Source: a virus
Lineage: Duplodnaviria; Heunggongvirae; Uroviricota; Caudoviricetes
IMG/VR virus record: IMGVR_UViG_2690316028_000006
Span: 1 to 4,505 of that record
Length of the DNA stretch: 4,505 nt
Strand: one strand, 5' to 3'
In this document: positions 1,393 to 4,505 of the stretch, in pieces
Layout: every line of letters starts with the position of its first letter
How positions within the stretch are numbered: the stretch's first letter is position 1
The notes under the pieces: model-generated
Databases searched by the model: none
Told to the model about the DNA's origin: nothing
The model's input: the letters and a program-made list of their open reading frames with translations, nothing else
Translations under genes and position numbers: made by a program

Positions 1393-1788
1393 GTGAAAAA
1401 AATATTGTTCTCTGGTCTTGTGGTGCTTGCCACCGCTGGATGTGCTGATAATAGGCCAATGCCGGTATTAGATACTAAGCCTGTCACATGTTCATCAGAG
1501 GCTGAATGTAGTTATCTTTGGTCGAAGGTTCCTCAGCATTTGGAGTTTGCAACAAAAATGAGAGTAGAATCAGCTAACGATACATTTATAACAACATTCC
1601 CACCTATTGATACAAGGCAACTTGCAGGACGGGCATCTAAGGTTAAACAGTCCGGCGATACGGCAATAAATGCTGAATTCCAATGCCATCGACATTATGG
1701 GCAGAAGGATTGTGAAAGGGCGGTAATTAATGCTACAAATTTCTTTAATCAAGCAATGAGCATTGAAAAGAAACATTTTAATAAATAA
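1393..1788 (+). CDS. Predicted lipoprotein, 131 aa, GTG start, function unknown (moron gene)
   Basis: N-terminus MKKILFSGLVVLATAGC has a basic n-region, a hydrophobic core and a lipobox-compatible ATAG|C with Ala at +2 (no Asp inner-membrane retention signal). The mature part has four Cys (C33, C39, C98, C107). Coding region is AT-rich relative to flanking tail genes, has its own Shine-Dalgarno and is followed by an intrinsic terminator. Confidence 0.75.
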   Translation: MKKILFSGLVVLATAGCADNRPMPVLDTKPVTCSSEAECSYLWSKVPQHLEFATKMRVESANDTFITTFPPIDTRQLAGRASKVKQSGDTAINAEFQCHRHYGQKDCERAVINATNFFNQAMSIEKKHFNK

Positions 1789-1849: not shown

Positions 1850-2437
1850 ATGCAAGAGGTCATGAGTCGAATTGAATTAGGCAGTGTTCTTGGAAAAACG
1901 TTTGGCAAAGTTCACTACCGTCTGATATCCCGCGTAAGCGAAGCAGGCGTTGCACTCGCAAAAACCATTCCTGGATTTGAGCAGTTTATGATTTCCAGCC
2001 AACGCCGTGGGCTCACATACTCCGTGTTTAAGGGTAAAAAAAACATCGGTGTGGATGACCTTGGCTTCCCGATTACCGGCGAGGTTATTCGCATTGTTCC
2101 GGTAATCATCGGGAGTAAAAAAGCCGGTTTGATTCAAACTATCCTGGGCGCAGTATTAGTGATTGCATCGATCTGGATGCCAGGTCTGAGTATAGCTGCC
2201 AGCAATATGATGTTTGCTGCTGGTGCGTCCATAACGCTGGGGGGGGTAGTTCAGATGTTATCCCCTCAGGCTACAGGGCTGGCCAGCAAACAGAGCTCAG
2301 ATAACCGCGCCTCATACGCGTTCGGCGGGGTAACCAACACTGCAGCGCAAGGCTACCCAGTGCCTCTGCTTTATGGTAAGCGTCGAATCGGCGGAGCGAT
2401 TATTTCTGCCGGAATTTATGTCGAAGATCAACAGTAA
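1850..2437 (+). CDS. I: Tail assembly protein I (gpI-like)
   Basis: C-terminal region (…SITLGGVVQMLSPQATG…YPVPLLYGKRRIGGAIISAGIYVEDQQ) resembles the lambda gpI C-terminus as remembered (…GGVAQMLAPKA…VLPVLYGEMRVG…). Start chosen at ATG 1850 (a G6 run at 1839-1844 serves as Shine-Dalgarno, 5-nt spacer) rather than the track's 1763, which would overlap the lipoprotein gene and span the terminator. Confidence 0.8.
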   Translation: MQEVMSRIELGSVLGKTFGKVHYRLISRVSEAGVALAKTIPGFEQFMISSQRRGLTYSVFKGKKNIGVDDLGFPITGEVIRIVPVIIGSKKAGLIQTILGAVLVIASIWMPGLSIAASNMMFAAGASITLGGVVQMLSPQATGLASKQSSDNRASYAFGGVTNTAAQGYPVPLLYGKRRIGGAIISAGIYVEDQQ

Positions 2438-2474
2438 ATTAATTAACTTATTAGCTGATAGGCAGGAGAAAACT

Positions 2475-2792
2475 ATGACTTTAGAAGAGCGCATGAGCAT
2501 GCTTGAGGCAACCATCGCGAGCCTGCAGGTGGAGATAGCAGAGCTGCATAACCCGGCAATCGTCAATTCCGCCATTCAGAACGCACTACGGCCAGGTGGC
2601 GCTATTCATTCGATCATCACCGGTAATGGCTGGAGTTTGCGAGTAAAGGAGGGAAAGATTTCGCAGGGTGATGCAGGGGTTTTCGGTGGAACGGTAACAG
2701 CGGCCCAGAATGAGGCCGCTAAAACTCATGAAGAAATATTCAATGAAAAGCTCGATTTAATTATTTCTTTGATGCCACCTCTAAAACTTTAA
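2475..2792 (+). CDS. Hypothetical small protein, 105 aa, helical/coiled-coil-like N-terminus
   Basis: Strong Shine-Dalgarno AGGAG (2464-2468) with a 6-nt spacer to ATG 2475. Translation MTLEERMSMLEATIASLQVEIAELHNPAIVNSAIQNALRPGG…LMPPLKL. Start trimmed from the track's 2373, which begins inside gene I. No homolog recognised. Confidence 0.6.
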   Translation: MTLEERMSMLEATIASLQVEIAELHNPAIVNSAIQNALRPGGAIHSIITGNGWSLRVKEGKISQGDAGVFGGTVTAAQNEAAKTHEEIFNEKLDLIISLMPPLKL

Positions 2793-3021
2793 GGATGCGC
2801 GTGAACGCATCAATTGTGTGCGGATCATTACGTGCAGCTGATTCTGGGATTTTTGCTTGCCCTGCCTGATAGTTTTTAGTCAGAGCATCGAGTGCGCCTG
2901 GCCGGGCAATGTCCAGTAATTTCACAATGTCCGATAGAATCAGGCCAGTTGCAATTTCATGCGTAAGCAGCTTTTGTTTAAGCTCTGCCACTTCTTTTTC
3001 CAGTTCTAACATCGAACCCAT
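2761..3021 (-). CDS. Hypothetical small protein, 86 aa, convergent with and overlapping the 3' end of the 2475-2792 ORF
   Basis: Minus-strand ORF with a near-consensus Shine-Dalgarno (AAGGAG, 6-nt spacer, reverse complement of 3022-3040). Translation MGSMLELEKEVAELKQKLLTHEIATGLILSDIVKLLDIARPGALDAL…VASKK. No homolog recognised. Confidence 0.65.
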   Translation of the reverse strand: MGSMLELEKEVAELKQKLLTHEIATGLILSDIVKLLDIARPGALDALTKNYQAGQAKIPESAARNDPHTIDAFTRILKVLEVASKK

Positions 3022-3105
3022 TTACTTCTCCTTTTTCCAGAGGTAATCAGCCATTCCACCTGTTATGAGTTCACCAGCGTCCCACCGCTGGCGGGCTGAA
3101 TCCAC

Positions 3106-3132
3106 AACATAACCAGGTATTTAGATTTGTAA
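3106..3132 (-). promoter_or_regulatory. Candidate sigma70-like promoter for the minus-strand 86-aa ORF
   Basis: On the minus strand, TTACAA (complement of 3127-3132) and TATGTT (complement of 3106-3111) are separated by 15 nt. The match is weak and the spacing suboptimal. Confidence 0.2.
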
Positions 3133-3152
3133 CATCCTGATATTCAGACAGT

Positions 3153-3176
3153 AGCCACCTTTGGGTGGCTTTTTTA
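3153..3176 (+). terminator. Rho-independent terminator on the + strand, immediately upstream of the J start
   Basis: 7-bp stem AGCCACC/GGTGGCT with loop TTTG, followed by TTTTTT (3170-3175). The U-tract is on the + strand only; the minus-strand flank is not T-rich. Confidence 0.6.
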
Positions 3177-3186
3177 TGGGCGCAAT

Positions 3187-4505
3187 ATGGCTACAGATAA
3201 AGTGTTAAAAGGCCGCAAGGGCGGCAGCTCAAGTTCCCGAACCCCTACCGAACAGCCTGATGATCTGCAATCTGTAGCGAAGGCAAAAATCCTCGTTGCG
3301 CTTGGGGAAGGGGAGTTTGCTGGACAGCTCACCGGCAAAGATATCTACCTGGACGGAACAGCGCTGGAGAATGCTGACGGCTCCCAAAACTTCAGCGGGG
3401 TAACGTGGGAGTTTCGCGCGGGAACGCAGGCGCAAAAATATATTCAGGGTATTCCCGGTACCGAAAACGAGATCAGCGTAGGAACTGAGGTATCAAGTGC
3501 CACAGCCTGGACGCGCACGTTTACCAATACGCAGCTTTCAGCAGTTCGCCTGCGTCTTAAATGGCCCTCGCTTTTCAAACAGGAAGACGACGGCGATCTG
3601 GTGGGTTACTCGGTCAATTATGCGATTGACCTGCAGACTGACGGCGGCACATGGCAGACGGTACTCAATACCAGCGTGACCGGCAAAACGACGTCTGGTT
3701 ATGAGCGCAGCCACCGTATCGATTTACCGCAGGCTGGCAGCACATGGACAATACGTCTGCGTAAGATTACCTCTGACGCCAACAGCGCGAAGATCGGCGA
3801 CACGATGATGCTGCAGAGCTTCACCGAGGTGATTGACGCCAAACTGCGCTACCCGAACACCGCGCTGCTCTACGTCGAATTCGACTCAAGCCAGTTCAAC
3901 GGCTCTATTCCTCAAATTTCATGCGAACCGCGCGGCCGCGTTATCCGCGTTCCAGATACCTACGACCCTGAAACCCGCACTTATAGCGGTACATGGACCG
4001 GTGCGTTTAAGTGGGCATGGACGGATAACCCTGCGTGGATTTTTTACGACCTGGTTGTTTCTGACCGGTTCGGCCTTGGGCACCGTTTGACCGCTGCGAA
4101 TATTGATAAATGGACGCTTTATCAGGTTGCTCAGTATTGTGATCAGATGGTACCAGACGGCAAAGGGGGCAACGGTACAGAACCACGCTATACCTGCAAC
4201 GTGTACATTCAGGACCGGAACGACGCCTACACAGTCCTGCGTGATTTTGCCGCTATCTTCCGTGGCATGACCTACTGGGGCGGGGATCAGATTGTGGCCC
4301 TGGCTGACATGCCGCGCGATGTTGATTACAGCTATACGCGCGCTAACGTTGTTGGCGGTCGCTTCACCTATTCGAGCAGCACCACGAAAATCCGCTACAC
4401 CACAGCGCTGGTTTCATGGTCAGACCCGGGTAACGCTTATGCCGACGCGATGGAGCCGGTATTTGAGCAGGCGCTGGTGGCGCGGTACGGCTTCAATCAG
4501 CTGGA
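3187..4505 (+). CDS. J: Host specificity / tail tip protein J (gpJ-like), 3'-partial; runs off the window end
   Basis: Frame is open from ATG 3187 to the window end (about 439 codons). The translation (MATDKVLKGRKGGSSSSRTP…NTALLYVEFDSSQFNG…RGRVIRVPDTYDPETRTYSGTWTGAF…NPAWIFYDLVVSDRFGLG…DKWTLYQVAQYCDQMVPDG…) parallels the remembered lambda gpJ N-terminal region (…YPNTALVGVQVDSEQFG…RGRILQVPSNYNPQTRQYSGIWDGTF…DKWALYVIGQYCDQSVPDG…). Absent from the ORF track only because it has no stop in the window. Confidence 0.9.
   Translation, partial: MATDKVLKGRKGGSSSSRTPTEQPDDLQSVAKAKILVALGEGEFAGQLTGKDIYLDGTALENADGSQNFSGVTWEFRAGTQAQKYIQGIPGTENEISVGTEVSSATAWTRTFTNTQLSAVRLRLKWPSLFKQEDDGDLVGYSVNYAIDLQTDGGTWQTVLNTSVTGKTTSGYERSHRIDLPQAGSTWTIRLRKITSDANSAKIGDTMMLQSFTEVIDAKLRYPNTALLYVEFDSSQFNGSIPQISCEPRGRVIRVPDTYDPETRTYSGTWTGAFKWAWTDNPAWIFYDLVVSDRFGLGHRLTAANIDKWTLYQVAQYCDQMVPDGKGGNGTEPRYTCNVYIQDRNDAYTVLRDFAAIFRGMTYWGGDQIVALADMPRDVDYSYTRANVVGGRFTYSSSTTKIRYTTALVSWSDPGNAYADAMEPVFEQALVARYGFNQL

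Follow-up and report, generated by a model that had tools for sequence, protein, structure and literature searches.

The DNA analysed here, a stretch of 4,505 nucleotides that is called the window in the following, comes from the tail-tip region of a lambdoid prophage of the HK97/HK022 type, as judged from the list of its open reading frames and from Pfam matches (Table 1). Gene J, of which the window holds the 5′ part, is named as such in the records of HK97 and of Escherichia coli. The stretch from 2400 to 3260 is found in three complete E. coli genomes with 99.8–99.9% identity; its annotated products there are a tail assembly protein, two proteins called hypothetical, and the host specificity protein J. 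An exact copy of the spacer between the cargo gene and J is present, for example, in the E. coli chromosome VREC0864 (NZ_LR536431). The GC content over 2400–3200 is 44–47%, as compared to about 55% in K, in the 3′ part of I, and in J.

Table 1. Genes and features of the window, with positions counted from its first nucleotide
Feature	Position	Strand	Remarks
L, 3′ end	to 593		window begins inside L
K	595–1305
Low-GC lipoprotein ORF	1393–1788		with own terminator
I	1850–2437
Small ORF, 105 aa	2475–2792	+	position of HK97 gp22 ("moron product")
Cargo gene, 86 aa	2761–3021	−	position of HK97 gp23 ("reverse moron") and of HK022 Srb
Spacer, 165 bp	3022–3186		between cargo gene and J
Helix P3	3038–3062	−	3057–3062 with 3038–3043; loop includes the 3′ arm of P1
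Candidate long-range helix P1	3047–3099	−	UCAGCC (3099–3094) with GGCUGA (3052–3047)
Hairpin P2	3072–3093	−	8-bp stem 3086–3093/3072–3079; loop GUGGGA (3085–3080 on the − strand)
Predicted weak sigma-70-type cargo promoter	3106–3133	−	−35 GTTACA 3133–3128; 16-nt spacer; −10 TATGTT 3111–3106
Conserved dyad	3112–3152		ACCAGG (3112–3117)/CCTGAT (3136–3141) bracketing the −35 and the promoter spacer, then block CTGATATTCAGACAGTA
Intrinsic terminator	3153–3175	+	stem AGCCACC/GGTGGCT 3153–3170; loop TTTG; six T (T-run 3170–3175)
J translation initiation region	3176–3186	+	ATGGGCGCAAT; only GGG at −9 to −7
J, 5′ part (tail tip/host specificity gene)	3187–4505	+	Pfam FNIII-A_GpJ, E = 1.6e-51

Between I and J lie two small ORFs of opposite orientation, which overlap tail-to-tail by 32 nt (2761–2792). 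The one on the + strand belongs to phrog_22477 (PHROGs search) and has a strong Shine-Dalgarno (SD) sequence with an anti-SD pairing energy of −7.4 kcal/mol; its RefSeq start lies earlier, within gene I. A + strand ORF is annotated at the equivalent place in the records of HK97, HK022, and ES18 and is missing from the module of E. coli MSB1_9D. From module to module these ORFs are mostly unrelated and vary in length from 49 to 120 amino acids. The sole similarity among those of three modules (window, 2475–2792; locus L008, 1139–1297; locus L010, 1097–1303), in which the neighboring cargo genes differ, is an N-terminal MTLEER..LE. Just past the stop codon of the + strand ORF, in the 3′ part of the cargo ORF, there is a perfect 6-bp inverted repeat, GATGCG-CGTGAA-CGCATC (2794–2811), which is flanked by a T-run on neither side. 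The gene on the minus strand, here referred to as the cargo gene, is preceded by the SD sequence AGGAGA (3027–3032, minus strand; anti-SD duplex of −8.7 kcal/mol). Its product belongs to phrog_23209 (PHROGs search), is 27–30% identical to HK633_067 and mEp213_072, and has no detectable relation to HK97 gp23. No clear terminator of its own was found for the cargo gene.

Morons, as defined by Hendrix and Juhala, are extra DNA between genes that are adjacent in relatives; they have a deviant composition, their own terminator, and a promoter of their own that works in a repressed prophage. Between I and J the window exceeds HK75 and more than 20 other phages by about 700 bp, and its cassette deviates in GC content and carries its own terminator. 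A second moron (1393–1836) is found at the K/I junction. It comprises a 131-aa lipoprotein ORF of 36–41% GC, whose signal peptide ends in ...LATAGC, and is closed by a + strand terminator (stem 1813–1830, T7), the last T of which lies 13 nt before the ATG of I. The K/I junction thus obeys the same rule as the I/J junction, since in both a terminator T-run abuts the start of the next tail gene. At this junction HK97, HK022, and HK75 have another small gene (gp20) and another hairpin.

The spacer between the cargo gene and J had been described in the original prediction as untranslated and as ending in a + strand terminator directly before J. Indeed, there is no ORF of 30 or more amino acids reading through 3047–3173 on either strand, and the terminator is a canonical intrinsic one. 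A consensus scan found a 7-bp stem with five G-C pairs (hairpin energy −12.2 kcal/mol), and what is characteristic of intrinsic terminators, namely a G+C-rich stem, a short loop, and at least five U, is present with a loop of 4 nt and U6. The T-run ends at 3175 rather than at 3176, which is an A, so that the ATG of J at 3187 comes 11 nt after the last T and 10 nt after position 3176, the latter being the distance that had been given. In the whole window there are seven terminator-like sites where 4.3 ± 2.2 are expected, a number that is not significant alone, and the functional case for 3153–3175 therefore rests on position and conservation. Across the 47 related elements that include a T-run, compensatory changes preserve the stem (GCCACC/GGTGGC to GCCGC/GCGGC), and its G.U pairs number 13 in the + sense vs. 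2 in the minus sense; judged from these pairs, the terminator folds on the + strand.

A "terminator, putative" is annotated at the same place in the records of HK97, HK75, mEp234, mEpX1, and ES18; the one in the HK97 record (15107–15129), directly before J, is the same hairpin. A cassette is missing from HK75, mEp234, mEpX1, and more than 20 further phages, in which only about 50 nt separate I from J. These HK75-type junctions nevertheless retain the identical hairpin, the T-run, and ATGGGCGCAAT-ATG, and in several of the records the terminator is annotated. Taken alone, the terminator is thus ordinary moron biology, already known and annotated. Because it persists in cassette-free phages, it may functionally be no part of the cassette. 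For the same reason the proposal that it could insulate J from transcription of the cassette has to be qualified: there is a real terminator before J, but insulation cannot be its whole role, since it is also found between I and J where there is no cassette.

It had also been pointed out that J has no obvious SD sequence, and this is borne out: between the J leader and the anti-SD of 16S rRNA the pairing energy amounts to only −2.4 kcal/mol and is the weakest among the starts of the window that were compared, the other five (K, the lipoprotein ORF, I, the + strand ORF, and the cargo gene) having values of −5.3 to −9.3 kcal/mol. The sequence ATGGGCGCAAT before the J start codon is identical or nearly so (one or two substitutions) in HK75, HK022, and HK97.

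The larger part of the spacer, that beyond the terminator (about 3026–3152), was found by sequence comparison to be a conserved, portable non-coding element. In HK97, HK022, and mEp506 a + strand ORF, a minus-strand ORF, and a homologous spacer are likewise found between I and J. The spacers of these three phages and of the window are 75–80% identical, whereas the adjoining minus-strand genes barely align, their products being 25–30% identical or unrelated. A search with a 17-base core pattern yielded at least 120 matching contigs in IMG/VR. With an extended pattern (the core plus three further specified bases) the element was found in 14 species genomes, all of Enterobacteriaceae (Citrobacter, Enterobacter, Kluyvera, Atlantibacter, Dryocola, Phytobacter); a single archaeal match was dismissed as chance. 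In every case the element is bordered on one side by a minus-strand cargo gene and on the other by the following late gene, which is on the + strand. It is co-oriented with the late genes, and its distance to the start codon of the late gene that follows hardly varies.

At least eight different junctions are occupied by the element. For example, it is found after Rz in HK633, mEp213, and mEp043, between M and L in ES18, Oslo, and SPN3UB, before M in E. coli H6, before the holin gene in E. coli N18-04097, after the lysis genes and before a hypothetical ORF in E. coli ET846, and again between I and J in E. coli MSB1_9D, there with a cargo of 210 amino acids and no + strand ORF. Since it recurs with unrelated cargo at many junctions, the spacer is a portable non-coding unit that is conserved more than anything accompanying it.

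The cargo genes are indeed diverse. For the matches listed, BLAST grouped the 86 distinct cargo proteins into 26 clusters. Two of these (L044 and L086) go back to chance pattern matches and one (L049) is an IS3 insertion; this leaves more than 20 unrelated clusters among these matches. They include a DUF1883 protein, an aspartyl-protease-like protein, the 210-aa protein already mentioned, and several PHROGs annotated as of unknown function; functional assignment of the cargo proteins by Pfam and PHROGs is limited to unknown-function families. Between I and J, mEp506 has a "DUF2594 containing protein", and HK022 has gp22 and the "srb protein". In L049 (about 1158–1333) the orfA of an IS3-family transposase is in the place of the cargo, and the 3′ arm of the leader helix P3 is replaced.

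Some loci depart from the usual arrangement. One IMG/VR contig (L024) has two copies of the element about 2 kb apart (2305–2323 and 4357–4375), each with its own cargo gene. In Stx-type lysis cassettes (L019, L057) a variant without terminator abuts the start codon of the SAR endolysin gene. In E. coli O157:H7 (L150, 901–1007) only the promoter-proximal part is left, between ydfR (DUF1327) and the endolysin gene. Where the element lies after Rz, the next gene starts with ...GCTGGTGGCTGAAGA (L006, about 1700–1720, and many IMG/VR loci, e.g., L022 and L027), and the Chi octamer (GCTGGTGG) is thus located at the start of this gene.

The strand on which the element acts could be approached via the base pairs of its helices, which were counted in both senses in an alignment of 66 copies (less than 93% mutual identity; 63 distinct sequences). 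In P2 98.5% of the alignment cells are paired. One of its pairs is UA in 48, CG in 12, and UG in 3 sequences, and another is UG in 38, CG in 12, and UA in 12; the CG variant with its 12 sequences could stem from few events. The G.U pairs of P2 number 52 in the minus sense vs. 1 in the + sense. In P3 both sides have changed at 4 of the 6 pairs among the 63 distinct sequences, G.U pairs number 34 in the minus sense vs. 9 in the + sense, and the copy in the window forms 5 of the 6 pairs. These strand-specific G.U pairs assign P2 and P3 to the minus-strand RNA, which would be the leader of the cargo mRNA.

The third helix, P1, would enclose P2 and interleave with P3. In the modeled structure P1 is a candidate that would form either a pseudoknot with P3 or a fold that excludes it. 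As both arms of P1 are invariant or nearly so in the 63–66 sequences, covariation speaks neither for nor against it. For the whole leader the covariation score is 0.126 vs. 0.092 in shuffles (0 of 500 reach the observed value), and 93% of the cells of the leader pairs are paired vs. 28–48% when the partners are slid. The RNAalifold consensus recovers P1 and P2, the covariation term being small (−0.73 kcal/mol), and the structural support for the leader fold is for this reason only moderate.

An imperfect hairpin around 3080–3096 had been noticed before. Its sequence, CCCACCGCTGGCGGG, is present at 3081–3095; the conserved helix is, however, a different one, namely that of P2. The pairing previously put forward (CCCGCC/GGUGGG) is an alternative to it that has an A.C mismatch on the + strand but a G.U pair on the minus strand, and it is complete only on the latter. 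A scan of the window and seven related loci against Rfam 15 gave no notable minus-strand match to a curated cis-regulatory RNA. A leader peptide was considered and rejected: the AUG in GGGAUGGCUGA is missing in 12 of the 66 copies, and the peptides would be 3–20 amino acids long with scattered stops. Sequestration of the cargo SD sequence by CCUCU, which pair in some single-sequence folds, is not a conserved feature either, since the L019/L057 variant has CUCGC instead of CCUCU and yet keeps P3 intact. Three GGA-type motifs in the leader resemble CsrA sites, which is a resemblance only: the P2 loop GUGGGA, a motif where P3 begins to join its neighbors (GGAAUGG in the window, for which the consensus of the family has GGGAUGG; minus-strand RNA, 3041–3062 region), and the cargo SD sequence.

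Upstream of the leader the only consistently promoter-like place on either strand, in a position-weight scan of the 66 copies, is a minus-strand TAnnnT with a weak −35 sequence 15–18 nt upstream. The T, the A, and the final T are invariant in all 66 copies and the inner bases vary, for which reason TAnnnT is read as a −10 element rather than as part of an RNA helix. In a strict sigma-70 scan of the whole window there was no site; the candidate scores 8 of 12, below the threshold. It is nevertheless the best candidate for the cargo promoter, a second possible −10 (TACTGT, 3153–3148) scoring worse. Transcription is predicted to start near 3099–3102, at the foot of P1, from which a leader of about 80 nt follows. 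Being weak, the promoter may depend on an activator, or transcription may in fact start elsewhere.

The sequence around the putative promoter is also conserved: in the dyad and the CTGATATTCAGACAGTA block the columns are invariant or near-invariant, and the loop of the dyad varies freely. The dyad and CTGATATTCAGACAGTA are candidates for an operator or an activator site, or, should transcription begin farther upstream, for a hairpin in the RNA; a minus-sense hairpin at 3112–3141, which would contain an invariant U.G pair, would indeed imply a start upstream of the predicted one. By eye, TACTGT...CAGG (CTG-N9-CAG) is one base short of the CTG-N10-CAG of a LexA box, and CRP and FNR half-sites are poor matches; these assignments were rejected.

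From this the spacer is probably best viewed as the control region of a mobile "reverse moron" cassette inserted between I and J; one of its two parts would act on the minus strand and the other on the + strand. The part from 3026 to about 3150 would serve the cargo gene on the minus strand. It would provide a weak sigma-70-type promoter flanked by conserved dyads, then a structured 5′ leader of about 80 nt (P2, P3, and the invariant P1 arms), presumably for stabilization of the mRNA or for control of its translation, and then the ribosome-binding site of the cargo gene. The other part, 3153–3175, would close the cassette about 11 nt before the start codon of J. In the lysogen it would stop unmodified rightward transcription before J, and in lytic growth Q-modified polymerase would pass it. 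Promoter, leader, and terminator together would form a portable unit of about 150 bp that has served a variety of unrelated cargo genes at numerous late-operon junctions.

The original prediction had considered another role, that of a small RNA or a long 3′ UTR antisense to the leader of the minus-strand gene. According to this explanation a + strand sRNA, or a stable 3′ fragment ending at the terminator, represses the cargo gene as OOP does cII or as type I antitoxin RNAs do. The + strand from about 3095 to 3176 does resemble the 3′ module of Hfq-type sRNAs (hairpin, A/U-rich linker, terminator, U-run), and the fold of the spacer has a z-score of −3.0 on the + strand vs. −1.7 on the minus strand. 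There are also full-length cmscan matches to isrK (22 bits; gathering threshold 50), rseX (22.8; 50), and MicA (20.5; 41). These are, however, sub-threshold and driven by the generic terminator: the sRNA families isrK, rseX, MicA, and isrD reach at best 20–23 bits vs. thresholds of 37–55, no family matches the whole window at E ≤ 1, and with the gathering threshold as well as with permissive ones, scans of the window and the seven related loci returned only such sub-threshold look-alikes. Moreover, the 66 aligned copies have no consistent + strand promoter, the 86 minus-sense G.U pairs of P2 and P3 would turn into A.C mismatches if the RNA were that of the + strand, and 19 of the 66 copies retain the leader without hairpin and T-run. 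This makes an antisense RNA quite improbable, and the corresponding part of the original prediction is not upheld.

There are two further explanations. In one the terminator does no more than end the transcript of the + strand ORF, as the ES18 record has it for gene 24, and the convergent, fully overlapping transcripts control each other through transcriptional interference or duplex RNA, spacer conservation reflecting only that. A + strand ORF does precede the cargo gene in most modules, with an N-terminus shared by three of them, and convergent terminators are assigned in this manner in the records of both ES18 and HK97. But the ORF is absent from some modules (MSB1_9D) and otherwise mostly unrelated in sequence, there is no promoter-like site upstream of 2475, and the invariant loops and minus-sense helices are left without explanation. 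We consider this reading unlikely as a full account, and it may be partly true. In the other, the hairpin and the spacer are mainly a recombination joint or a relic of cassette swapping with little regulatory role today. This would fit with the fact that homology at I/J breaks off exactly at the hairpin and just past the I stop codon, that two hairpin types recur over many junctions, and that the HK75-type phages keep the hairpin only. However, conservation is patterned (the stems, certain loops, and TAnnnT are invariant, and the linkers and the dyad loop are free), and compensatory changes keep the helices, whereas neutral homology would decay evenly. A mere joint or relic is therefore very improbable.

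The preferred reading, a control region serving both strands, can be taken a step further. The leader with P1, P2, P3, and the invariant loops GUGGGA and GAUGGCUGAUUA might be a new class of cis-regulatory RNA, a pseudoknot or a two-state switch answering to a protein, an RNA, or a small molecule, and together with the promoter and the back-to-back terminator it might constitute a portable "expression socket" inside late operons for more than 20 unrelated cargo genes expressed in lysogeny. This extension is speculative, and we offer it with more doubt than conviction.

Morons are the way in which temperate phages carry host-altering genes, be it for exclusion, virulence, or defence. To our knowledge, how morons are switched on in lysogens and how they leave the late operon undisturbed has mostly been assumed. 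If one unit is indeed shared by many cargo genes, it would be a sequence tag for accessory genes expressed in lysogeny in enterobacterial prophages and a defined RNA element that can be tested for regulation, and it would account for the invariable placing of the cassettes, which leaves exactly one ribosome-binding site between them and the late gene that follows. Rfam does not contain the element (scan of Rfam 15), and in the searchable literature, including that on "reverse moron", HK022 srb, and DUF2594/DUF1883, we found no paper describing it. What is new would thus be the spacer as a widespread mobile promoter/leader/terminator unit for backward-facing accessory genes, its mechanism being predicted from sequence.

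The closest known system is that of HK97 genes 22 and 23 with their flanking putative terminators (GenBank AF069529; Juhala et al., 2000, as cited in this record and in PMC3594210). As in the window, there is at the I/J junction a + strand ORF, a convergent minus-strand ORF, a spacer of about 165 bp, a hairpin with T-run, and then J. The spacers are 76% identical and the terminator hairpins identical, whereas no relation between the cargo proteins is detectable. In the HK97 record the annotation is confined to the terminators, with no feature for a conserved promoter or leader, of which there is also no description in the searchable papers. The annotations of the record call the product of gene 22 "moron product" and that of gene 23 "reverse moron product". 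The modules with ES18 genes 24/25, HK022 gp22/Srb, HK633_067, and mEp213_072 follow the window in the element and in the rules of orientation. Those of the M/L and after-Rz type differ from it in the junction and in having the hairpin variant GCCGCC-ATCG-TGCGGC.

The prophage sRNAs of the IsrK/anti-sRNA type (RF01394; PMC4104026) are also short terminator-ended units at lambdoid moron insertion sites. However, they lie downstream of PR′ (Tree et al., 2014, PMC4104026) and not in the tail operon, and the conserved helices of the window are on the opposite strand.

Read-through by Q-modified polymerase in lytic growth is the standard inference for terminators within late operons. As 3153–3175 lies directly before J and inside the late operon, late transcription has to read through it in order to reach J, as the original prediction had argued. 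This also agrees with the HK97-like layout, in which a terminator closes the unit just ahead of the late gene that follows. It is standard for morons to have a terminator that abuts the next tail gene (PMC3594210). The window, which ends inside L and J, carries neither a Q gene nor a qut site; its closest characterized relative, HK97, encodes a Q protein. Q would mediate the read-through. The situation is then like that of lambda-type Q read-through in that a terminator in the late operon has to be passed for J to be expressed, and unlike it in that the terminator before J lies a long way from PR′ and is associated with a mobile cassette.
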